The notes: generated from the letters alone by a model not told the origin. Positions 8,241-39,785 are shown, numbered from the stretch's first letter. The stretch is DNA of 64,000 bases from Firmicutes bacterium HGW-Firmicutes-14 (GCA_002840275.1 PHAB01000011.1:25886-89885), one strand, 5' to 3'. Made by a program: numbers and translations.

Positions 8241-9494
8241 ATGTGGAATCAGGCCAAGACAAACAAAAGAACGATAACAGGTATCCTCATCATAATCTGT
8301 CTGTCAATATTCTTCCCGGCGCTCCCGGGTTGCGGGATGCAGAAAGCCCTGGCGGCAGGAACCGCAGGGAGCGGTATTCCGGGGGAAGATTCTGAAGCAG
8401 TTGTTTCCCAGAGCCTGGAGGAATATATGCCGGGTGTGGACCTGGAAACAGTGGAAAAGTTCCTGGAAGAAATGGACAGGGACATTAAAGCCTATATGCC
8501 TGAGCTGGATTTGAAAGAAATGGTCTACAAACTTGCCCGGGGTGAGCTGGGAATAAGCGCTGTGGAAATAATGAAAGGCCTTATTAAATACTTATTTAAA
8601 GAATTGGTTGCCAACTCGCGGCTGCTGGGGCAGCTGCTGATATTGGCTGTATTGTGTGCAATCCTTCAGAATGTCCAGTCTGCCTTTGAACAGGGCACAG
8701 TAGGTAAAATCGCATGGTTTGTATGTTTCCTGGTCCTCCTGTCCCTGGCCCTGGGTTCCTTCACCATCGCCTTACAGACCGGCAGGCAGGCAATCGAAGA
8801 TATGGTTGCCTTTATGAATGCTATGCTGCCTGTCCTGATAACATTGCTGACTGCGATGGGAAACGTAACATCTGCCGCACTTTTCCATCCCCTGACTATT
8901 GTAGTGCTCAGCACCATCAGTACCCTGGTAAAGAATGTGGTTTTTCCCCTCATATTTTTTGCTGTGGTCCTGGGGCTTGCCAATAATATCACTTCCCGGG
9001 TTGAAGTATCCAGGCTGGCAAGCCTGCTTAAGGAATGGAGTGTGGGTCTTCTGGGCCTGTTTTTTACAGTTTTCATCGGTTTTATGATGGTTCAGGGAAT
9101 CGCCGGGGCAGTTGCCGATGGGATCGCCATGAGGACGGCAAAGTTTGGTATCGGGGTTTTTGTACCGGTTGTCGGGAAGCTTTTTTCCGATGCCCTGGAA
9201 GCGGTAGTTGGAACCTCTTTGCTGCTGAAGAATGCAGTGGGACTGGTAGGGATTCTGGCGGTTTTTTTTATATGTGCTTTCCCGGTATTAAAGATTGTAT
9301 CAATCATGATTATTTATAAAACTGCAGCGGCTGTCATCCAGCCAATCGGCGACAAATTAATAGCAGATTCCCTGAATGTTATGGGGAACAGCCTTACAAT
9401 AGTGTTTGCCGCCGTGACAGCGGTGGGTATCATGTTCTTTTTTGTTATTGCCATAGTGGTGGGCGCCGGGGATTTCAGCCTGATGTTGAGGTAA
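8241..9494 (+). CDS. spoIIIAE: Stage III sporulation protein AE
   Basis: 417-aa polytopic membrane protein with signal/lipobox-like N-terminus, operon position 5. Confidence 0.9.
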   Translation: MWNQAKTNKRTITGILIIICLSIFFPALPGCGMQKALAAGTAGSGIPGEDSEAVVSQSLEEYMPGVDLETVEKFLEEMDRDIKAYMPELDLKEMVYKLARGELGISAVEIMKGLIKYLFKELVANSRLLGQLLILAVLCAILQNVQSAFEQGTVGKIAWFVCFLVLLSLALGSFTIALQTGRQAIEDMVAFMNAMLPVLITLLTAMGNVTSAALFHPLTIVVLSTISTLVKNVVFPLIFFAVVLGLANNITSRVEVSRLASLLKEWSVGLLGLFFTVFIGFMMVQGIAGAVADGIAMRTAKFGIGVFVPVVGKLFSDALEAVVGTSLLLKNAVGLVGILAVFFICAFPVLKIVSIMIIYKTAAAVIQPIGDKLIADSLNVMGNSLTIVFAAVTAVGIMFFFVIAIVVGAGDFSLMLR

Positions 9495-9509
9495 CGGGGG
9501 AAAAGAAAT

Positions 9510-10121
9510 ATGGATACTGTGAGGGTGATAGTAAAAAGTATATTAATAATAATAATGATGACGGCGTTCCTGGAGATAGTTCTCCCCAGAAGTGACATGA
9601 AGCGCTACATCAACCTGATAATCGGGTTGTTTGTCATTATAGCTGTATTGAACCCATTCTTAAGCCTGGTCAGCAAGCCCCTGGATTTTGACGTACTTGG
9701 TCTGGAGGGTGCCCAGGGGAGCAGTGATACAGAATCCCTGATCAAGAAGGGAAAAGATATTGCCCAAAAGGGCCGGGAACAGGCCGTAAGCAGTTATAAG
9801 GAAAAGCTCTCCGGGCAGATTATGGCCTTGTCTGCATTTTACCGGGATGCAAATGTCACCCGGGCAGATGTTGATATTGTGGAAGACCCGGGTGATGAAG
9901 ATTTTGGACAGATACGGAAAGTGGTGCTTATTGTCGGCGGACCTGATGACAGAGTTTTGGACAGTTCCCCGGTGAAAGTGGATGAAATAGATGTAAGCGC
10001 CGGGCCTGGGGATGAAAAAAAAGAGGAATCAGGGCCTGCTTCAGAGGGGTATGGGGAGTTGAAAGAACTGGTTGCCGGTTTTTATGGACTGACCCCGGAA
10101 CAGGTGGTCATAAGGAAATAG
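9510..10121 (+). CDS. spoIIIAF: Stage III sporulation protein AF
   Basis: 203 aa with two N-terminal TM segments (...ILIIIMMTAFLEIVLP...YINLIIGLFVIIAVLNP), operon position 6. Confidence 0.8.
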   Translation: MDTVRVIVKSILIIIMMTAFLEIVLPRSDMKRYINLIIGLFVIIAVLNPFLSLVSKPLDFDVLGLEGAQGSSDTESLIKKGKDIAQKGREQAVSSYKEKLSGQIMALSAFYRDANVTRADVDIVEDPGDEDFGQIRKVVLIVGGPDDRVLDSSPVKVDEIDVSAGPGDEKKEESGPASEGYGELKELVAGFYGLTPEQVVIRK

Positions 10122-10124
10122 GAG

Positions 10125-10847
10125 GTGCCGATATTGGTAAATTTTATTAAATCCATTAAGAAGTTGTTTGGCGCAGCGGATTCCGGCAGTGAGGAAGATA
10201 AAGGAGGACGGGCGGCCCGGCCCGTCTGGAAAAAGCTTAACAACCTGATAATTATTGCCGCTGCAGGTATCTTTCTGATTATCCTGGCTAATGTCTTTTC
10301 ATCAGATGGGAACCCGCCGGACGGACTCGGGGGAGGTGGTACTCCGGAAATCAAATCTCCCGGAATTGTCTCCCCCGGACCTGAGGGTTCCGGGTCAGGA
10401 GAAGATAAGGGGACCGGCGTTGCCTATACCCCCGGAATTACGGAACTGGAAAACCTGTTGGCAGAAAGGCTGGAAAAGGCGCTTGTCCAGATCAGCGGCG
10501 CCGGTAAACTGGAAGTAACCGTTAACCTTGCCTCAACCCTGGAGAAAGATTGTGCCGTCAATACTGTAACCAACAAAAAGACGACTGAGGAGCACGACCA
10601 GAAAGGGGGCAACCGGACAATTACAGAACTTAATGAAAACGGGCAGATGGTGCTGATCCGTGAAAGCCAGGGCAGTACGGAACAGCCGGTTGTTGTCAGG
10701 GAAGTAAAGCCTGAAGTAAAGGGTGTTATAGTGGTGGCAGAAGGAGCCCATGACCCTGCGGTTAAAGCAGATCTGATGAATGCTGTGCAGGTCTACCTTG
10801 ATGTCCCGCTTTATAAGGTTATAGTACTGCCGAGAGAAAGCAGGTGA
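10125..10847 (+). CDS. spoIIIAG: Stage III sporulation protein AG
   Basis: 240 aa. TM anchor, Gly/Pro linker, and C-terminal ring-forming domain ending ...VKGVIVVAEGA.DP.VK..L..AV...LDVP.YKV.V.P. Confidence 0.85.
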   Translation: MPILVNFIKSIKKLFGAADSGSEEDKGGRAARPVWKKLNNLIIIAAAGIFLIILANVFSSDGNPPDGLGGGGTPEIKSPGIVSPGPEGSGSGEDKGTGVAYTPGITELENLLAERLEKALVQISGAGKLEVTVNLASTLEKDCAVNTVTNKKTTEEHDQKGGNRTITELNENGQMVLIRESQGSTEQPVVVREVKPEVKGVIVVAEGAHDPAVKADLMNAVQVYLDVPLYKVIVLPRESR

Positions 10848-11482
10848 AAGGGATGAGGTCTTTGTTCATTAACAGAAGAAACCTGTGGGTCGCTATACTG
10901 TTCTTAGGTATCATTATGATGGGAGTGGGGGTATACCAATTGTCGGCGGAGATTGGGGAAGCCCCTGAAGGGACCGGAGGGGCCTTAGAAGGCACCGGAG
11001 CAGTTTCAGATGGCACCGGAGCAGTTTCAGATGGCACCGGAGCAGTCTCAGAAGGAACAGGGGGGAACCCCCTGATTACCGGTGGGGCTGTTGAGGTAAA
11101 GGATACGGGAAACAATCGGGCGAAGACTGAGAAGAGCGAGTTTTTCGTGGAATACAGACTGGAAAGAGACAGGACGCGGAGCCAGCAGATTGACCTGCTC
11201 AGGGAAATTGTCGATAACCAGCATTCACCGGAAGAAACCAGGAAGGAAGCCCAAAGGCGGATGTTGGCGATTTCACAAGCCATAGAAACAGAGATGAAAC
11301 TGGAGAACCTGATCAGGGCGGAAGATTTCAAAGATGCCGTGGTATTTATCCAGGAAAAATCAGTTACGATAATTGTCCAGACTCCGGCTTTGACCGCCCT
11401 GGATAAGAAAAGCCTGGCGGAAACTGCGGTCAGGGTGACCGGATTAAACGTGGAAAACATAATCATTATTCCAAAGATGTAG
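10844..11482 (+). CDS. spoIIIAH: Stage III sporulation protein AH
   Basis: 212 aa with TM anchor and C-terminal YscJ/FliF-like domain (FFVEYRLERDR.RS...). Last gene of the operon. Confidence 0.8.
   Translation: MKGMRSLFINRRNLWVAILFLGIIMMGVGVYQLSAEIGEAPEGTGGALEGTGAVSDGTGAVSDGTGAVSEGTGGNPLITGGAVEVKDTGNNRAKTEKSEFFVEYRLERDRTRSQQIDLLREIVDNQHSPEETRKEAQRRMLAISQAIETEMKLENLIRAEDFKDAVVFIQEKSVTIIVQTPALTALDKKSLAETAVRVTGLNVENIIIIPKM
10970..11053 (+). repeat. Four tandem 21-bp coding repeats inside spoIIIAH
   Basis: Units at 10970-10990, 10991-11011, 11012-11032 and 11033-11053 (GGCACCGGAGCAGTTTCAGAT and variants) encode GTGGALE/GTGAVSD/GTGAVSD/GTGAVSE. Confidence 0.85.
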
Positions 11483-11614
11483 AATCTGTAAACCGGGTTT
11501 TGTGTCCCATTGTATATATCTATAATATTGTATACTTGGCTGAAAGATATTGAAATAGAGCATATCAGAGAATATAATATTAAAAGCAGGGTCTTCGCCC
11601 TGAAATGTTACACT

Positions 11615-11652
11615 CTCAGGTTGTCTGCGCCACAGCCTGAGATTTTGTGTTG
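11615..11652 (+). terminator. Possible terminator of the spoIIIA operon
   Basis: CTCAGGTTGT...ACAGCCTGAG hairpin (11615-11641) followed by the T-rich ATTTTGTGTTG. Confidence 0.45.
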
Positions 11653-11704
11653 TAAATCACCGGACTGCATTTGTGATATAACGGACAAACACGGAGGGAT
11701 AAAT

Positions 11705-13651
11705 ATGGTTAAGGCACACAAAGTCGAAATTACTGATACTACCCTGAGGGACGCCCATCAGAGCCTGTGGGCAACCCGTATGCGTACTGATGATATGCTC
11801 CCCATTGCAGAAAAACTTGACCAGGTGGGATATCATTCCCTGGAAGTATGGGGAGGCGCCACCTTTGATGTATGCCTCAGATACCTGAATGAAGACCCGT
11901 GGGAGAGGCTGCGGCAGTTAAAGAAACTGATAAAAAAGACTCCCCTGCAGATGCTTCTGCGGGGACAGTCCCTTGTCGGGTACCAGCATTACCCGGATGA
12001 TGTGGTGGAATCTTTTGTCCATAAGGCGGTTGAGAACGGAATAGATATCATCAGGATATTTGATGCCCTGAATGATATCAGGAACTTCGAAGTTCCGGTA
12101 AAGGTTGCCAAAAAGGCAGGGGCTCATGTCCAGGCAGCCGTGGTCTATACGGTAAGTCCCGTACATACGATGGAACATTACCTTGACACTGCACGCCAGC
12201 TGGCTGACATGGGGGCTGACTCCATATGCATCAAGGATATGGCCGGTCTCCTATCACCTTATATGGCCTATGACTTGGTTAAGCTGTTTAAAAAGAACCT
12301 GAAAATTCCCATTCAGCTGCACAGCCACTACATCGGTGGATTGGCACTGGGGGCTTACCTAAAGGCGGCCGATGCCGGGGTGGACGTAATTGATACAGCT
12401 TCGGTACCCCTTGCCTTCGGCGCTTCCCAACCGCCGGTGGAGACTGTGGTCAGGGCGCTTCAGGAATCCCCTCATGATACAAGGCTGGATATTCATACAC
12501 TGTTTGTTGTGTCAAAATACTTTGAAGAACTTAGGAAGAAACACGGTTTTGAACGGGGTGTGACAAGGATTACCGATATGAGGGTCTTTGAGCACCAGGT
12601 CCCCGGTGGAATGATCTCCAACCTGGTTTCCCAGCTGGAAGAACAGAAGGCCCTCCACCGCATCCATGAAGTCCTTGCAGAGATACCCCAGGTGAGAGAG
12701 GACCTGGGCTTTCCGCCCCTGGTCACACCGACCAGCCAGATTGTTGGCATCCAGGCCGTATTAAATGTCCTCACAGGGAAACGCTACAAGCTGGTCCCCG
12801 GAGAGGTGCGAGCATATATTCAGGGTCAGTATGGCAAACCGCCTGCCCCCATCAAGGAGGAGATTATCCAGCAGATTCTGGGGGACTGTGATGTTAATCT
12901 GATAAAATGCCGGCCAGCTGATTTGCTCGAACCGAAAATGGATACAATAAGGAGAGAAATCCAGGATTTGGCTGCTTCCGAGGAAGACATTTTATCTTAT
13001 GCCCTTTTCCCGTCAGTGGCCAGGAAGTTTTTTGAATGGCGGCTTAATAACGGTCTTGACACCGAAGATGCAAATACTATTCCTGATGTAATAGTGAAGC
13101 AGGAAGAAGTGGCGCTCCCGGAAAACGGTGTAAACCAGGATAAACCGAATGTCAAAGACCTGAAAAAAGACATCCTTAAGGGAGGAAAGAGCATGAATCT
13201 AACAGAGATAAAAGAACTTATCAAGATGCTGGACGAAACAGATATCTGCGAACTTCATCTGGAAAGCGCCGGTGTAAAGGTGTCTATCAAAAAGGCAGGA
13301 GCAGGTCCGTCAGCCGGGTTCCCGCCGGCAGGTTCCCCATCAGCCGGTGAAGAGGTTTCCGTGCCTGTTGAAGAAAGCAGGGAGAAACCAACCAGGGATA
13401 TTGATGAAAACCTTATTCAGATAGTTGCCCCCATGGTAGGGACATTTTACCGTGCCCCATCCCCGGAAGCCGCACCCTTTGTGGAAGTGGGGCAGATGGT
13501 TACTGAAGGGCAGACCCTCTGTATCATTGAGGCTATGAAGCTGATGAACGAAATCGAGGCTGAGATTTCCGGACGTATAGTGGATATCCTCGCAGAGAAC
13601 GGCCAGCCGGTTGAATACGGCCAGACGCTTTTCCTCCTCGAAAAAGCATGA
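11705..13651 (+). CDS. 5S-type carboxyltransferase (pyruvate carboxylase subunit B / oxaloacetate decarboxylase alpha-like) fused in frame to a complete biotin carboxyl carrier protein
   Basis: The N-terminus [22 protein letters not shown]... is the HMGL-like 5S carboxyltransferase domain. From ATG 13193 (preceded by AAGGGAGGA) the sequence is a full AccB ([15 protein letters not shown]...[15 protein letters not shown]). No stop codon lies between the two parts. The ORF-track start at 11510 adds an implausible AT-rich leader. Confidence 0.85.
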
Positions 13652-17818: not shown

Positions 17819-17890
17819 GTATTGACATAAAAAGGGGAAAAGGGATAAAATTGCTAATAACGAGGGAGTTGATTTCCGGAGGGATAAAAA

Positions 17891-20233
17891 TTGGATAATG
17901 AAAAATTGCTGTCAGAATATGTGGATTATTGGAATTATAGTTATCCTATAGCTAAAAGGAAAGAAATTTTAACTGGTTTTAAGGATAAGGCTAGGTTGGA
18001 AGGAAGGAAGTTATACGAAAAAATTTTTGAAGGATTGTTGTTACTGGAAAAGGGTGAATATGAAGATGCTGCAAAAGAGTTCAACTCTATCATTGAAGAA
18101 GATGACACATGTTTTTTGGCTTGGCGGGGGTTAGCCAAGGCTAATTATTTGCTTAAAGATTGCAACCAAGCGGTAGCTCCCCTTAAAAAAGCACTAGAGA
18201 TTCAACCTGACTTTTTTCCAACACTGTGTCTAAGTGCCTGTCTCAAGGTTGAAATGGAAGACATCAGCGGAGCTTATAACGAAGCAAAAAAGGCATTAGA
18301 ATTGGATATAGAAAAAAAATCTGTTCCTTGTCGGATAATCTTAGGACGTATACTAAGTATTCAAGGTAAATATAACAAGGCAGAACATTATTATAAAGAA
18401 GCTCTTTTAATTAACAGTCAAAGCGCGCAAGCGTTCAATGCACTGGGAAATCTATATTTACACTTAAAAAAGTATAATCAAGCAAAGGATAATTATTTTA
18501 AGGCAATAAATTGCGACAAAGACTTTGCGAATCCTTGGAACGGGCTGGGCTCTTTATATTGTCAGTTGCGTAATTACGAGAAAGCGGAGGATTTTTATAT
18601 TAAGGCATCGAACTTAGACCCTAACTATATTACTCCATGGCTCAATTTAGCTGAAATGTACACTGATTTAAACAGGATAGAGGATGCAATCTATTGCTTT
18701 CAAAAACTTAATTCTATTAAATTCAATCCAGATTATTTAACAAAGATTGGTTCCAGTTATCTGGGTCTTAGGCGATATAAAGAAGCTAAAGACTATCTTT
18801 TTAAAGCTTTAGAGAGTTTTCAAGAAACAGATAATTTCCGTGCATCTATCGCTGAATCAATAATTAAAGAAGCAGAATTTCTAGAGCTTATGGAGAAGGA
18901 AGAAAATCGCGATGAGGATGACAAACTAAGAAAAATTTTAATTGAAACAAGAGAAATAGAAGAAAAGTCTGAAAAGAATAAGGAGTCTTTTTTAAAGTTT
19001 ATTGGTCCTCAAGACATTAAAGATTTTTATCGTGAAAAGCCAGAAGAAAAAAATGCGGAAGCATATTTAGAGGTTTTAAGAAAATGGAACTCTTATACAC
19101 CTATCATTGCAGATGATTATCAAGTGAGTAAAGGCGGAGGATACTTCCTAAAAATTAATAACAGGGGAATCGTTATAGATCCAGGTTTTAATTATATCCA
19201 CAACTTTAAAGCTGCCGGATATAAGTTCTACGAAATAGATGACGTATTTATTTCTCATGCGCATAATGACCATACTGCGGACTTAGAATCAATTTTAACC
19301 TTGGTGTATAAATATAATGAAGAACTCAAGGGAATGGAAAATTATTCTAATTTTAATACAATTCGCGCAGAGTTGGCAAGAAAACATAACAAAAAGATTC
19401 ATTCTATTACAAGGCAGGAAATAGAACAAGAGTTTAAGATATCCCCAAGGCAAAAGAAAATAAACCTCTATATGACATCCAGCGTATTTAAAAAGTATGC
19501 AGGTCTTTTTGATCTCTGCTCTCATGCATATTACAATGTATATTTTTTAGAAAGAGACTCAGTTATTCCAATAGGGACTAAAAGCAGGGTAAAGGTTCTT
19601 AGGGCTAAACATTTTGACACTATTTCAGATGTAAAATCATGTGGATTTTTAATTGAATATTATGATAAAGCCATTATATACACAGGTGATACCGGTTGGG
19701 ATAGTGATGCTATAATTCAACAGTACAATAATATCAAAAATTATAAGTATAAGTTACTTATCGCTCACATAGGTGGATTTAAAGAATACGAGTGGAATTA
19801 CATCAGACGGCAAGGGGATAAAACATACTATACCAATCATCTTGGCAGACTGGGATTAGTTGAACTAAACCAGGCACTCCAACCCAATGTTTGTTTGATT
19901 TCGGAATTTGGAGAAGAATTTAAAGATTTTAGGAGGAAAATAGCTGGAGCTTTTAGTGAAGTATTTAAGAATGACAAAATCACGTATATACCGGCAGATA
20001 TTGGATTAAAATTCGATTTACGATTTGAGAAGATTAAAGCGATAACAGATATAGACCCTGATAAATACGCTTTTTCCGAAGACTATATTGAACCATCTGA
20101 AGTTAAAGTCGGTGAACTAAGAAAGTTTTTCTCTTTGTTTTACTTCTGTAAGAATGATAAGTTTTCTGAAAGCGATTTAGTTCAAGTATTATTAGACAGG
20201 GCCTCGGGTCAGAGATTTATAAAACAACCGTAG
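17891..20233 (+). CDS. TPR-repeat protein with C-terminal metallo-beta-lactamase-fold hydrolase domain
   Basis: 780 aa. There are multiple TPR-like units up to about residue 330, then a Glu/Lys-rich linker, then MBL motifs VIDPG, HAHNDH (19256-19273), KHFD, YTGDTG and AHIGG/TNHLG. The gene is AT-rich with A/T-ending codons, unlike its neighbours. Confidence 0.8.
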   Translation: MDNEKLLSEYVDYWNYSYPIAKRKEILTGFKDKARLEGRKLYEKIFEGLLLLEKGEYEDAAKEFNSIIEEDDTCFLAWRGLAKANYLLKDCNQAVAPLKKALEIQPDFFPTLCLSACLKVEMEDISGAYNEAKKALELDIEKKSVPCRIILGRILSIQGKYNKAEHYYKEALLINSQSAQAFNALGNLYLHLKKYNQAKDNYFKAINCDKDFANPWNGLGSLYCQLRNYEKAEDFYIKASNLDPNYITPWLNLAEMYTDLNRIEDAIYCFQKLNSIKFNPDYLTKIGSSYLGLRRYKEAKDYLFKALESFQETDNFRASIAESIIKEAEFLELMEKEENRDEDDKLRKILIETREIEEKSEKNKESFLKFIGPQDIKDFYREKPEEKNAEAYLEVLRKWNSYTPIIADDYQVSKGGGYFLKINNRGIVIDPGFNYIHNFKAAGYKFYEIDDVFISHAHNDHTADLESILTLVYKYNEELKGMENYSNFNTIRAELARKHNKKIHSITRQEIEQEFKISPRQKKINLYMTSSVFKKYAGLFDLCSHAYYNVYFLERDSVIPIGTKSRVKVLRAKHFDTISDVKSCGFLIEYYDKAIIYTGDTGWDSDAIIQQYNNIKNYKYKLLIAHIGGFKEYEWNYIRRQGDKTYYTNHLGRLGLVELNQALQPNVCLISEFGEEFKDFRRKIAGAFSEVFKNDKITYIPADIGLKFDLRFEKIKAITDIDPDKYAFSEDYIEPSEVKVGELRKFFSLFYFCKNDKFSESDLVQVLLDRASGQRFIKQP

Positions 20234-20393
20234 ATTGGAATATTAAAAGAATATTAACAATAAAATACAATATAGAAGAATCTTCCATGGTTACGGAAAA
20301 TTATGGTGCTAAACAGAAGGAAGTTACAGGTAAATGGCGAATGTAAAATTAGCCACGTTGTGAAATTAGCAATAATTGAATGGAGGTTTTAAA

Positions 20394-20543
20394 ATGGTAG
20401 AAGTGAAGGAATATCCGGTAATAAAGGGGACGGATGCTGAAAAGCTTCTTAAAGAATTAAAAGAAAACGACCGACGTTTAATTGAAAACGCTATAAAACA
20501 GGTTAGCAATAAACTAACCAATATCGAAGAAAAGCATGCCTGA
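20394..20543 (+). CDS. 49-aa ORF, candidate antitoxin of the downstream GNAT
   Basis: Absent from the ORF track because it is under 60 aa. RBS TGGAGG at 20381-20386 precedes ATG 20394. Product is MVEVKEYPVIKGTDAEKLLKELKENDRRLIENAIKQVSNKLTNIEEKHA. The stop overlaps the GNAT start (ATGCCTGA). A paralogue lies at 21141. Confidence 0.55.
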   Translation: MVEVKEYPVIKGTDAEKLLKELKENDRRLIENAIKQVSNKLTNIEEKHA

Positions 20544-21096
20544 AGATTTTAAATTTAATCCCTCCTCCATGATTTTGAGATGTATGAGGTGGGACTTAGA
20601 CAAAACAGCTATAGTTAATTTCCGGTGTGGCGACAAAAAAATGGAAGAATTCTTAGTAGAGGAAGCCTGGGAAGCACATTGTTCAAGAGATGGCAGCACG
20701 ACCGTTTTGATTGACAAAGAGGCCCCTTTTAACGACAATATAATGGGTTTTTATACCTTAATAGTACCTCAGGTTGTTAAAGTTGAAGAACAAGGCACTA
20801 TAGATGAATTAAGTACTGTTGGTATAGCGAGAATTGCAGTTGCTTTGAGATGCCAGAATCAAGGGGTTGCCAGATATTTAATTCGAGACATATTGTTCCT
20901 TGCAGAAAAGATAAACCAACGACTCGTATCAACTTATGCCGCTTTTGAATATAAACAACTTTATGAAAGATTAGGTTTTAAAAGTATTATTCGTAACGAA
21001 GTAGAAAATCCGGAACCTAATGAACCTAAGGTGCTTATGCTGACACACCTTGCAGATATAATACTCGGTCCCGGAAAAACTTATATCGATGATTAG
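20536..21096 (+). CDS. GNAT family N-acetyltransferase, TacT/KacT-like toxin candidate
   Basis: 186 aa. FRCGDKKMEEFLVEEA resembles the F-x-CG-x3-L/M-x2-FL motif of GNAT toxins. The acetyl-CoA motif is RCQNQGVARYLI. Confidence 0.75.
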   Translation: MPEDFKFNPSSMILRCMRWDLDKTAIVNFRCGDKKMEEFLVEEAWEAHCSRDGSTTVLIDKEAPFNDNIMGFYTLIVPQVVKVEEQGTIDELSTVGIARIAVALRCQNQGVARYLIRDILFLAEKINQRLVSTYAAFEYKQLYERLGFKSIIRNEVENPEPNEPKVLMLTHLADIILGPGKTYIDD

Positions 21097-21140
21097 TAAT
21101 AAGTAACGCAACTGGGCATAATCATTAATGAGGTGGTTAT

Positions 21141-21290
21141 ATGCCAGTTGATATTAACATACCAGTTGTTCGGGGTGAAGATGCGAGGAAGCTAAGACAA
21201 TGGCTGCAGAAAAACGACAATAGGCTTAAAGCGCAAATACAGGTTTCTAAGAATGATTTACACCGGGGGAGTCAAGCAGAAAATTCCTGA
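21141..21290 (+). CDS. 49-aa ORF, orphan paralogue of 20394-20543
   Basis: RBS GAGGTGG, ATG 21141. Product is MPVDINIPVVRGEDARKLRQWLQKNDNRLKAQIQVSKNDLHRGSQAENS. It shares P-V-(I/V)-(K/R)-G-x-D-A-x-K-L...L-x-x-N-D-x-R-L with the first ORF. Confidence 0.5.
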   Translation: MPVDINIPVVRGEDARKLRQWLQKNDNRLKAQIQVSKNDLHRGSQAENS

Positions 21291-21310
21291 TTTTATCAGG
21301 TTTTTTTTTA
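21281..21310 (+). terminator. Rho-independent terminator closing the AT-rich islet
   Basis: CCTGAT/ATCAGG stem (21286-21300) followed by a run of at least 10 T. Confidence 0.55.
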
Positions 21311-21349
21311 TTTTTTTCATTACTTTCAGGCAGGAATTTATGACAGTAA

Positions 21350-21366
21350 TGTCGAAATTTGTCGAA
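21350..21366 (+). promoter_or_regulatory. Two tandem perfect Spo0A-box heptamers (TGTCGAA) 10 bp apart
   Basis: TGTCGAA at 21350-21356 and 21360-21366, about 100 nt upstream of the decahaem cytochrome gene. Confidence 0.4.
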
Positions 21367-21467
21367 AGTACTTTTACACAGTAATTATGTTCATTTGTCA
21401 GGGGGTGAAGAACAGGGCTTTTTAAGGGCAAGGGATTAAAATCAACTTAAGAAGGGGCGAAATCAGG

Positions 21468-23243
21468 ATGGGAAAACTGTTGTTATACTTCAGGAAACCT
21501 TTTTTGCTTCAGGTTATCTTATTATGTATCCCAATGATTCTCTTGGCTTCCGGTCCCGCCTTTGCCGATTCAGCCGGCCCCGCCCTGTCAGGGATATCTC
21601 CTGCTGACGGAGCGGTCATAAATGTGAGTAAGATTACCATATCAGTTACTGCTAAGGACCCGGACAAGGTAAATGCCCAGTCTGTGGTTATGAAGGTTAA
21701 CGGGAATACAGTGTCAACCATAAAACAATATGGCTGGAAAGATGAATATACCGATGATCTCACACTCCTGTCAATTTATTACTCTGCCAGTCTTGGTGAA
21801 GGAACACACAATGTATACATATCAGTGAAGGACAGCTTAGGAAATTTAACAGAGCATGCCTGGTCTTTTACCATCTCCGCACCACCCCAAATATCCTCCC
21901 TGACCCCGGCCGACGGGGCCACTGTTTCCGGGAAAAAGCCGGTTATATCGGCTGTTGTCACCGATAATACGGCCATAGACGAAACCTCTATAAATATGAC
22001 CCTTGACGGGAATACTGTTCCGGCATCCTACGACCCGGTCACCGGGACAGTATCATTTGTCCCCCAGAATGACCTGGCCAATGAAACCACCCATAGTGTT
22101 GTTTTAAATATTCAGGACACTGCCGGGAATCCGGCCCGGGCTGAGTGGAGCTTCAGGGTTGTTACATATGATGAAATGCCGTTTTCAGCAGATGATAATA
22201 CCTGTCAGGCCTGCCACCTTCGCAGTACACATCCGATGAACAACTGCGCCAAGTGCCATGGTATTAATGTCAGCGCTGACAACCCGACATACCCGCTGGA
22301 TGATTGTTATAACTGTCACTTTGGAACTTCTGCTTATCCGTCTGCTTATCATGCAAACGGCCTCCCGTACCTGGCGACACCGGACCACCCGGTACAGGCT
22401 ACCGACAGTTGTGTTACATGCCATACGAAAAACTGGAGTACGGGAATTCCCTATTATCATACTGTTACCAATACCGCGGAGAGGCACCTTACCACTTCTG
22501 AAGGATGTGAGAACTGCCATTCCGCCAGCCTTACCAGGGAACACTACCAGAGGACAGACGATTCCGGCAGCAGCCTGGATTGTTTCACCTGTCACACCAA
22601 TACAGAACCGCGCATACAGGAAGCCATCATTGCCAGGGATTCATCCTGTTCGGCCTGCCATAATCTTGGCGCTGACGGGGGGCACCCGGCCCACAACAAC
22701 GGTCTGGACTCTTATTGCCAGACATGCCATTCAGATTCAATCCTCACAGAATCCCAGTTCCATCAGGACAACGGGTGTCAGGTATGCCACAGCAAAACCG
22801 CACCTGAAATAGCCAAGTATTCTATAAATATAAAGGATACAAGCTGTTTTTCCTGCCACAACCAGGGACATAACGTGAATTTCGTTCAGAGAGTCCCTGA
22901 AGACATTCCCCTTTACCCCGGTTTTAAGTGGACAGTGCCCCAGGATGCCGGGATTTTCGCAGGGGAGCCGTGGGTTGACCCCGGATATGATATTACAGGC
23001 GCCAAAATTGTTATTTCCAACCGGCTTCAATCGGTTGACGGGTCACAGGTCTATTCATGGTATGAAGGAGAGATGGCCGCAAATGGCTGGGCCAAGTCTG
23101 CCGATATGGCCGGGGAGAACGATAATTTTACAATAACCTTCACCAAAGGCATCCGTACAATGACGGTGAATTTATATACCGGAGAGACCCATGACCCTGG
23201 TTCGCCGTTTGTTGGGTACAAGCTGGAAATTTTGTACAGATAA
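21468..23243 (+). CDS. Secreted decahaem c-type cytochrome with two N-terminal Ig-like domains
   Basis: Signal peptide and two repeated Ig-like modules (SGISPADGAVINVSK.../SSLTPADGATVSGKK...). There are ten CxxCH motifs: CQACH, CAKCH, CYNCH, CVTCH, CENCH, CFTCH, CSACH, CQTCH, CQVCH, CFSCH. Confidence 0.85.
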   Translation: MGKLLLYFRKPFLLQVILLCIPMILLASGPAFADSAGPALSGISPADGAVINVSKITISVTAKDPDKVNAQSVVMKVNGNTVSTIKQYGWKDEYTDDLTLLSIYYSASLGEGTHNVYISVKDSLGNLTEHAWSFTISAPPQISSLTPADGATVSGKKPVISAVVTDNTAIDETSINMTLDGNTVPASYDPVTGTVSFVPQNDLANETTHSVVLNIQDTAGNPARAEWSFRVVTYDEMPFSADDNTCQACHLRSTHPMNNCAKCHGINVSADNPTYPLDDCYNCHFGTSAYPSAYHANGLPYLATPDHPVQATDSCVTCHTKNWSTGIPYYHTVTNTAERHLTTSEGCENCHSASLTREHYQRTDDSGSSLDCFTCHTNTEPRIQEAIIARDSSCSACHNLGADGGHPAHNNGLDSYCQTCHSDSILTESQFHQDNGCQVCHSKTAPEIAKYSINIKDTSCFSCHNQGHNVNFVQRVPEDIPLYPGFKWTVPQDAGIFAGEPWVDPGYDITGAKIVISNRLQSVDGSQVYSWYEGEMAANGWAKSADMAGENDNFTITFTKGIRTMTVNLYTGETHDPGSPFVGYKLEILYR

Positions 23244-39095: not shown

Positions 39096-39147
39096 TACTT
39101 TCACAATTTGATAAAGTAATTTTAATCAAATGTGTATCAGTATCCTG

Positions 39148-39758
39148 GTAGGTGGCGCAGTATCCTAGTCAGGACCGGCACTTTGAGGGCGGGCCTAAAA
39201 ATCCGTCAAAGGGCATATCGATGAAGTTCCTGGTTCCGGCTGCTGACGCCCAGTTGGGGGTCGGTTCTGGGAGTAAGGGGGAAGGGCGATCTACAATGGC
39301 ATGTAGGCGTGGACCCAGCCCCCGTGGAGGCCCGGAAGCTGTAGTACAAGATAGTGGGAATTACCTTATACTACGATTCGGGATAAACCTGCCTAAGATG
39401 TTTTATTTTATATAATTCGTCAGAAGCAGTGTAGCCTGCCTTGAGTGGTGCTGGTGGATTATGGGTTACCGGGGTACCGGATGCGGGCCCGCGTCCGGCA
39501 ACTCCGCTATTTGAAACCACCACTGCAAAAGAGGCTAGAAGTATCCCGGTACTGTTGAGGAAAACTCCTAGGCTGTTTAGGTTAAACCTAAGACATGATG
39601 GGGATTAAAGTGTGGACTAAGTGGTAATCCAGCCCCGTATTCGGTGACGGTACGGATTCATCATAAAGGGAAACCGCCGGCACGGTAACGTGGCGGTGAT
39701 GATTGGGAAAACCAGCTGGACCTAAGCTACAACATTTACTCATCATGTTGCCACCTAC
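39148..39758 (+). ncRNA. ole: OLE (ornate, large, extremophilic) RNA
   Basis: A tract of about 611 nt with no credible ORF lies exactly at the ispA-side / oapA / dxs position typical of OLE. It is closed by a long-range helix, GTAGGTGGC (39148-39156) with GCCACCTAC (39750-39758). There are many internal GC-rich helices (e.g. CCGGATGCGGGCCCGCGTCCGG, CCGCCGGCACGGTAACGTGGCGG). Confidence 0.8.
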
Positions 39759-39785
39759 TGTTACATTTACATGAGGTGAAACTAT

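Follow-up and report, generated by a model that had tools for sequence, protein, structure and literature searches.

A horizontally mobile family of TPR–metallo-beta-lactamase fusion proteins with a predicted phosphodiesterase domain

Introduction

Nucleases of the metallo-beta-lactamase (MBL) fold act as defence effectors in other systems, and the HamM, trypsin-MBL and canu nucleases, which are ComEC-like MBLs, are encoded beside a protease gene (PMC12799240; bioRxiv 10.64898/2026.08.25.746987). In these systems the MBL immune effector is restrained by an insertion and released on signal, and tetratricopeptide repeat (TPR) domains sit in the sensing partners, whereas in the protein described here the TPRs are fused directly to the MBL domain. 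The gene for this protein, which we call TPR-MBL, lies at positions 17,891–20,233 of a 64,000-nt stretch of DNA (the window) from Firmicutes bacterium HGW-Firmicutes-14 (GCA_002840275.1, PHAB01000011.1:25886-89885), where a first-pass annotation had proposed a candidate single-gene defence or signalling effector. Our analysis of the gene and its family leads us to favour, tentatively, the prediction that TPR-MBL is a ligand-gated phosphodiesterase or nuclease, probably one related to genetic conflict.

Results

A TPR array joined to a complete MBL domain

The TPR-MBL coding sequence is an intact 780-aa open reading frame (ORF; 17891..20233, + strand) with a TTG start, supported by the gene table, Pfam and public gene callers, which gave the same start and product in three independent assemblies. 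A Shine-Dalgarno-like GGAGGG, read from the sequence, lies 7 nt before the start (17878..17883, +), and a consensus scan predicts a promoter-like TTGACA-18-TAAAAT further 5′ that matches the consensus at 11 of 12 positions (17822..17851, +). Pfam searches with the 780-aa protein returned TPR_1 (E = 1e-28, and 3.6e-32 in a second scan) together with Lactamase_B_2 (E = 1.6e-13; 51.2 bits against a cut-off of 27) and Lactamase_B (32.6 bits against a cut-off of 22.7), both of which passed their cut-offs. In a full-length AlphaFold2 (AF2) model built on 41 homologues, with a predicted local distance difference test score (pLDDT) of 87.9 and a predicted template modelling score (pTM) of 0.77, 18 helices form nine TPR-type hairpins over aa 20–311, and the TPR array as delimited by Pfam TPR_1 and the AF2 helices takes up aa 20–312 (17948..18826, +). 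It is followed by an acidic, Glu/Lys-rich linker at aa 313–389 (18827..19057, +), which is helical in the model, consists of 36% Glu plus Lys and 51% charged residues, has an isoelectric point of 4.7 and contains an F370 that is invariant in the alignment. The MBL-fold domain, a predicted phosphodiesterase, occupies aa 390–756 (19058..20158, +). Pfam, the AF2 model and the motif positions thus bear out the architecture that the first-pass annotation had read from the sequence, TPRs followed by a charged Glu/Lys linker and an intact MBL domain, although the repeats, described there as the N-terminal third or so, make up about 40% of the protein given the span of the hairpins.

All five MBL metal-binding motifs (D, HxHxDH, H, D, H) are present, and each of the motifs named in that annotation was found where it had been placed: VIDPG at aa 428–432, motif II HAHNDH at aa 456–461 (19256..19273, +), KHFD at 573–576, YTGDTG at 597–602, AHIGG at 625–629 and TNHLG at 648–652. 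No substitution of D430, H456, H458, D460, H461, H574, D600 or H650 is seen among the 41 aligned homologues. Further motifs are specific to the family. The segment WNSYTP-x8-SKGGGYF, a loop at the N-terminal side of the MBL domain delimited by alignment and AF2 (19085–19147, +), is invariant, yet poorly ordered in the model (pLDDT ~50–60); SEFGEE (19901–19918, +), defined by alignment, is accompanied by PADIGL. The domain also carries an insertion of ~65 residues (~aa 480–545) between motifs II and III and ends in a family-specific C-terminal beta-meander. The insertion lies at about what we take to be the place of the flexible arm of RNase Z, a correspondence of position rather than an established equivalence.

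The MBL domain belongs to the ElaC/RNase Z–PhnP–YhfI branch by fold

A fold search with the full-length model was swamped by TPR proteins, so we modelled the MBL domain alone (AF2, pLDDT 91.4) and searched with that model. This gave 251 PDB matches at E ≤ 1e-3, led by MBL-fold proteins, and the alpha-beta/beta-alpha sandwich of the MBL fold is evident in both the AF2 model and its PDB fold matches. The best matches, with TM scores of 0.65–0.78 on the target and 11–18% identity, are 8gyg (an ElaC-like ‘arylsulfatase’), 1zkp (the B. anthracis ElaC homologue), 6kns (YhfI), 7u2r/7u2s (Apyc1), 3g1p (PhnP) and 1y44/2e7y (RNase Z), and the top 50 also include PNGM-1 and RNase J. PqqB (4z7r) is among the fold matches at a TM score of 0.60, well below ElaC, YhfI and Apyc1. 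The appearance of 1zkp, 6kns, 7u2s, 3g1p and 1y44 agrees with the RNase Z/PhnP-type branch named in the first-pass annotation, and no assignment to a well-characterised family of metabolic enzymes, which that annotation had said would refute its proposal, emerged.

PDB sequence and profile searches found no close relative of solved structure, and even the family profile gave similarity over motifs I–II only. Membership of the NCBIfam Ribonuclease Z family (TIGR02651) was considered and rejected, as the protein scored 33.4 bits against a cut-off of 293 (E = 2.4e-8) over profile positions 20–88 of 302 only. Membership of the Apyc1 family (PF23023) was likewise rejected at 15.3 bits against a cut-off of 50 (E = 0.014), with the match confined to profile positions 25–86 of 250, which correspond to motifs I–II; precomputed Pfam tables list PF23023 for most TPR-MBL family members. 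With no PADLOC match, no solved relative and no paper on a TPR-MBL fusion found in the literature, the protein does not correspond to a named system, as had been surmised at the outset. Sequence motifs and structure prediction together place the C-terminal domain in the ElaC/RNase Z–PhnP–YhfI phosphodiesterase branch, as an MBL hydrolase with a predicted binuclear metal centre and a complete catalytic site.

A sizeable family with a conserved MBL domain and a variable repeat surface

The MBL half retrieves 387 proteins, mostly TPR-MBL fusions of 650–720 aa that carry generic annotation only. A profile search of 1.84 billion representatives gave 902 family clusters at E ≤ 1e-30 and 1,704 at E ≤ 1e-10, counted as clusters at 50% identity. 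Among the best 150 clusters, the MBL domain is C-terminal, after ~150–700 residues, in all but a handful, and at least 85% of the N-terminal regions are TPR. The two halves differ sharply in conservation: across phyla the MBL domain shows 45% pairwise identity with 105 of 361 columns (29%) at least 80% conserved, whereas the TPR region shows 25% pairwise identity with only 10 of 167 columns at that level, all at the structural Gly8/Ala20 positions. The N-terminal half is thus a canonical TPR superhelix whose ligand-facing residues differ between homologues.

Sampled bacterial hosts include Clostridia, Desulfobacterota, Nitrospirota, Planctomycetota including anammox bacteria, Ignavibacteria and Spirochaetes, and sampled archaeal hosts include Methanosarcina, anaerobic methanotrophic (ANME) archaea and Altiarchaeales. 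Every host sampled is an anaerobe, as judged from the organism titles of loci L012–L091, magnetotactic Nitrospirota included; this fits the association with radical S-adenosylmethionine (radical-SAM) genes described below and may also reflect sampling. The gene tree intermixes phyla and archaea, and the family genes deviate in composition from their surroundings, with a median GC content at third codon positions (GC3) that is 0.068 below that of neighbouring genes (Mann-Whitney p = 2.5e-6) and with 24% of family genes, compared to 6% of other genes, lying more than 0.15 below. The family is thus sizeable, uncharacterised and horizontally mobile. A phage or plasmid origin was considered and found no support in phage, plasmid and viral-contig collections, and fold matches in BFVD were generic MBLs only.

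In a few family members of 436–441 aa (P0071 and P0078), the TPRs are replaced by a hydrophobic N-terminus that resembles a signal peptide, and motif II is the variant HEHSDH. Their sequences suggest that members of this type may form a secreted sub-branch.

Radical-SAM genes cluster beside the family and its TPR-less sister clade

To describe genomic context we clustered 1,110 neighbour ORFs from 80 genome loci. Within the ±10 kb flanks, 13 of the 18 ORFs of at least 250 aa with a CxxxCxxC motif lie within 3 kb of the family gene, as compared with 5.4 expected under uniformity (binomial p = 2.7e-4). Co-oriented radical-SAM genes of the peptide-maturase type occur within 260 nt at 5 of 65 TPR-fused loci, in several clades, and the common neighbour resembles both the ‘geopeptide radical SAM maturase’ (1.7e-79) and CefB (4.9e-74), in each case below the curated cut-off. 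Three arrangements look like operons, in which up to three radical-SAM genes, of the SPASM type, come before TPR-MBL. At L129 (5141–11130), three radical-SAM genes and a 68-aa Cys-containing ORF are followed by a TPR-MBL gene that overlaps the preceding stop by 4 nt; at L060 (8219–11839), a 48-aa Cys-rich ORF (MQIASLSVSDLIELDEFISDSECCGYEESCCSDSCDGSCPSDSCTCEE) is followed by a radical-SAM/SPASM gene and then TPR-MBL; and at L024 (4764–12130), three radical-SAM genes precede TPR-MBL with gaps of ~15–35 nt and one short overlap.

A monophyletic sister clade, comprising 10 loci (L059, L067, L068, L069, L071, L072, L074, L076, L082 and L083), lacks the TPRs and nearly always adjoins a B12-binding radical-SAM gene. 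Here the genes form a cassette in the order DGQHR/DpdB-like protein, TPR-less MBL paralogue and B12-binding radical-SAM protein, separated by spacers of 12–15 nt (for example 8763–9797, 9812–11056 and 11068–12471 at L071). The first protein matches TIGR03187 (6e-43) and PADLOC DpdB (1.7e-29). An Hsp90/MORC-like HATPase_c_3 protein is an optional addition, and alternative additions are a ZorD/DpdE-like SNF2 helicase together with three further proteins, two of 340 aa and one of 135 aa. The cassette looks like a DNA-modification/restriction-type system that has not been described, and a literature search for a combination of DndB, MBL and radical SAM found nothing. Separately, L071 and L072 lie on the same contig (DAINAU010000004.1, 7751–28638 and 34153–52917), where a neighbourhood of more than 18 kb and ~19 genes occurs twice with the same gene series, a pattern due either to a large duplication or to an artefact of assembly.

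These associations bear on an alternative that we consider unlikely, namely that TPR-MBL serves as a tailoring or processing enzyme in a peptide or metabolite pathway that depends on radical SAM, in which the TPRs would bind a precursor or leader and the MBL domain would modify the radical-SAM product. The clustering of radical-SAM genes, the maturase-type operons, the resemblance to geopeptide maturase and CefB and the habits of the sister clade all point in this direction, as do the anaerobic hosts and the presence of PqqB and PhnP among the fold matches: PqqB acts with the radical-SAM/SPASM protein PqqE on a peptide, and PhnP with PhnJ in its pathway. However, a maturase-type radical-SAM gene is missing from the vicinity of about 90% of the TPR-fused loci, that of the window among them. 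No family of precursor peptides is conserved, and PqqB ranks low among the fold matches. A tblastn search of the 64-kb window with radical-SAM representatives gave nothing, so that the window copy would have to be an orphan with its partners elsewhere in the genome. Moreover, one radical-SAM-linked copy, at L130 (1–19950), lies inside an integrative defence island together with DUF1156/DUF499/DUF3780 genes, a GmrSD-like gene, two unknowns, AlpA, an integrase, FRG and PycTM, which is of the Pycsar effector type. Because this copy combines both contexts, a radical-SAM link and a role in conflict are not mutually exclusive.

Genomic contexts and the proposed function

According to the explanation that we favour, the ligand of the TPR array would be a protein or peptide, a different one in different lineages, and its binding would, by way of the charged linker, gate or target the phosphodiesterase, which would cleave a phosphodiester, most likely in a nucleic acid or else in a molecule derived from a nucleotide. 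With less confidence, we propose that the module may act in genetic conflict, either in defence against phages or through abortive infection; the TPRs would then sense a peptide or protein that is derived from the invader or modified by radical-SAM enzymes, and the MBL domain would be the nuclease effector. Unlike in Avs/STAND proteins, the proposed mechanism involves no NTPase switch. A role in conflict fits the mobility of the family, its pattern of conserved effector and variable repeats, the instances in defence islands and the cassettes of the sister clade. A more specific version is doubtful in our judgement: that TPR-MBL is a single-polypeptide immune sensor-effector, in which the TPRs directly gate an RNase Z-like nuclease and in some lineages respond to a radical-SAM-modified peptide, and that the TPR-less sister clade is the nuclease arm of a DpdB/DndB-like–MBL–B12-radical-SAM system for DNA modification and restriction.

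Clear defence genes do occur beside some family members. A PADLOC search of 279 immediate neighbours at 47 loci, all within three genes of the family member, returned PARIS AriAB (2e-153) and a DRT reverse transcriptase (1.6e-105), as well as AbiEi/AbiEii, HEC-05 and several OLD/ABC-type ATPases, counted as occurrences at these loci rather than as an enrichment over background. Several other results weigh against a conflict role. Most neighbourhoods consist of unrelated housekeeping genes, as judged from Pfam-annotated contexts, and the gene keeps a fixed position in some lineages, namely beside an archaeal dehydroquinate synthase II in Altiarchaeales, beside an AAA_26/DRTGG gene in Desulfovibrionaceae, and in one gut Oscillospiraceae species, in which an identical protein is found on 24 contigs; such lineage-stable positions fit a physiological role. 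PADLOC-DB v2.0.0 contains no meaningful match for TPR-MBL or its three islet neighbours, with generic TPR similarity only for TPR-MBL itself (PDLC01171, E = 0.0011; PrimPol, E = 0.0051). Searches with tblastn found no relative in 50,697 phage records or in plasmids, and two scans of IMG/VR gave only three weak, generic MBL matches. The TPRs are near-consensus, 30–32% identical to designed CTPR proteins; Avs-type sensors typically have long, divergent repeat arrays, and none of that kind is seen here. No STAND or P-loop NTPase domain was found in Pfam and NCBIfam scans, aa 313–389 being the charged helical linker, and a switch domain is thus lacking. Finally, the closest folds include small-molecule phosphodiesterases (Apyc1, PhnP and YhfI), and the repeated occurrence of radical-SAM neighbours may instead indicate a function in biosynthesis. 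The conflict reading is weakened by the many neighbourhoods of housekeeping genes, by the copies with a stable position and by the missing switch domain. The proposal of a defence effector made in the first-pass annotation is not established, since only some loci adjoin clear defence genes and most neighbourhoods are of the housekeeping kind.

The same evidence bears on a somewhat unlikely alternative, in which TPR-MBL would be a physiological phosphodiesterase, either an RNase Z-like nuclease of RNA processing or turnover that is recruited through TPR contacts, or a TPR-regulated hydrolase of nucleotide second messengers. It would be in keeping with the fold and partial profile matches to RNase Z, to the YhfI and Apyc1 cyclic-nucleotide phosphodiesterases and to PhnP, with the stable synteny in the three lineages named above, and with neighbours that include RecG, MiaB-like, YfbR-like HD, Tex, GGDEF/EAL, HDOD-HD and PAS/histidine-kinase proteins. 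On the other hand, the distribution is patchy and spans bacteria and archaea, composition is foreign at most loci, and the gene is absent from the closest relatives of the window organism. Clustering of the neighbour ORFs revealed no partner gene conserved across the TPR-fused clade, and a single conserved housekeeping context, which the first-pass annotation had said would refute its proposal, was likewise not found, the fixed positions in Altiarchaeales and Desulfovibrionaceae being partial exceptions. The protein scores far under the cut-offs of RNase Z and Apyc1, and the lack of conservation on the TPR surface speaks against a single conserved cellular partner.

TPR-MBL lies in an AT-rich islet

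In the window, TPR-MBL lies within an AT-rich inserted islet (17819..21467), defined by composition and by comparison with relatives, between a TsaD-like gene and a multihaem cytochrome gene. The islet, which the first-pass annotation had pointed out, is real: its GC content is 0.344 as compared with 0.471 in the rest of the window, and GC falls from ~0.50 to ~0.33 between the TsaD-like stop (17818) and the cytochrome start (21468), with sharp steps at ~17800 and ~21450. GC3 is 0.29 for TPR-MBL and 0.31 for a GNAT gene in the islet, against 0.50–0.53 for the flanking genes. A metagenome scan with the TsaD-like protein yielded 27 loci in which the order Asp23–NusB–TsaD-like is retained. At L102, the closest relative (67% identity), a cytochrome homologue follows the TsaD-like gene at ~200 nt, and in L103–L105 a CDF transporter follows it directly. 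Because none of these loci carries TPR-MBL or the GNAT gene, the 3.65-kb block is an insertion relative to every relative found, and TPR-MBL is a horizontally acquired accessory gene in this genome. Gene tables and domain scans covering 22 kb around the islet revealed no integrase, and searches at the islet for flanking direct repeats and for a tRNA found neither.

Besides TPR-MBL, the islet contains a divergent GNAT gene and two 49-aa ORFs, all on the + strand, and a terminator-like hairpin with a T-run, predicted by pattern scan only, closes it (21286..21310, +). The GNAT acetyltransferase (20536..21096, +; Pfam Acetyltransf_7 6e-7, phrog_1758 1.4e-14) is remotely TacT-like, in that its best PDB matches are TacT-family chains with weak scores in the range E = 0.002–0.04 (7ak7, E = 0.0018; 5fvj, E = 0.035). 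It has no NCBIfam or PADLOC toxin match, and a word-index search for homologues gave nothing beyond the protein itself. The first 49-aa ORF (20394..20543, +), called on public contigs, overlaps the GNAT start by 8 nt and is a possible antitoxin-like partner; it has no Pfam, NCBIfam, PHROG or PDB match and belongs to no antitoxin family, so that a DUF1778/ribbon-helix-helix antitoxin upstream of the GNAT gene was not found, and at 49 aa it is presumably about half the length of TacA. The second 49-aa ORF (21141..21290, +) is its paralogue (55% identity over 22 aa by BLASTP, E = 5e-8). The two paralogues flank the GNAT gene, and by eye both have a strand-helix-helix, ribbon-helix-helix-like layout with no family or structure match. 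The toxin-antitoxin-like pair of the first-pass annotation is therefore a weak inference, the GNAT being only remotely TacT-like and the 49-aa ORFs matching no family.

The layout of the islet would also allow for its four genes (TPR-MBL, GNAT and both small ORFs) to act together in a single multi-gene toxin-antitoxin or defence cassette, acquired in one piece, which we regard as very unlikely. The four genes share strand, foreign composition and a single bracket of one promoter-like and one terminator-like element, and the remotely TacT-like GNAT overlaps a small upstream ORF; yet the two units lie 160 nt apart, and the gap between them holds a promoter-like site of its own. Moreover, the 25 Pfam families most frequent among 150 neighbours at 25 other loci include no acetyltransferase family, none of the neighbour clusters that recur at the 80 loci is GNAT-like, and the GNAT has no detectable close homologues.

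Two other features of the window were recorded. Directly 3′ of the islet, a 591-aa protein (21468–23243, +) has both bacterial Ig-like domains and multihaem cytochrome c motifs and matches the Big_5, Cytochrome_C7 and MtrC/MtrF-like families. A full-length OLE (Ornate Large Extremophilic) RNA is found at 39136–39770 (+; Rfam RF01071, 502 bits, E = 2e-144); OLE RNA typically occurs in anaerobic Firmicutes, and its presence would fit the host.

Discussion

If TPR-MBL is a ligand-gated nuclease, it would represent a simple coupling of repeat-based recognition directly to an MBL effector, and some 900–1,700 protein clusters of anaerobic bacteria and archaea would be opened to functional annotation. 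If it proves to be an ordinary phosphodiesterase, the family would still be cleanly defined by the diagnostic motifs WNSYTP, SKGGGYF, HAHNDH, SEFGEE and PADIGL. The link between this MBL clade and radical-SAM enzymes, both in operons that resemble those of ribosomally synthesised and post-translationally modified peptides and in DndB-like cassettes, suggests an unexplored partnership, involving either a modified-peptide signal or a new pathway of nucleic-acid modification.

Among characterised enzymes, TPR-MBL is most readily compared with RNase Z, ElaC, PhnP and YhfI, with which it shares the branch of the fold, the five metal motifs, a Gly-rich loop before motif I and an extra His after a beta-strand (AHIGG) ahead of motif V. 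It differs from them in that its MBL domain is ~120 residues larger, with the WNSYTP...SKGGG loop, SEFGEE, the helical insertion and the C-terminal beta-meander as additions, and in that the domain is fused to ~390 N-terminal residues of TPR and linker; its gene is accessory rather than universal. Apyc1 belongs to the same MBL sub-branch by fold (TM 0.71–0.73 on the target), but it is a stand-alone protein of 250 aa, whereas the TPR-MBL family is cellular, larger, TPR-fused and not found in phage collections. PqqB shares the MBL fold of the same broad branch, and its partnership with a radical-SAM/SPASM enzyme has a counterpart in the 5 of 65 TPR-MBL loci that form operons with maturase-type genes; it is, however, a weaker structural match, there is no pqq gene context, and the window contains no radical-SAM gene.

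Kinship with the ComEC-like HamM and trypsin-MBL nucleases was considered and rejected, the fold being ElaC/YhfI-like with no ComEC entry among the top 50 PDB matches, and no gene for a trypsin-like or caspase-like protease lies beside TPR-MBL, whose neighbours are the TsaD-like gene, the 49-aa ORF and the GNAT gene. In Avs/STAND proteins, for which PADLOC gave no match here, the order is effector, NTPase and TPR, whereas in TPR-MBL the TPRs precede the effector and the array is short, with nine near-consensus hairpins. The TPR-MBL fusion, its MBL clade and the associations with radical-SAM and DndB-like genes appear to be undescribed, although both domains, and the logic of a repeat array joined to a nuclease-type effector, are already known. 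What TPR-MBL shares with Avs/STAND is that logic: a repeat array and an enzymatic effector reside in one polypeptide, with the effector conserved and the repeat surface variable.

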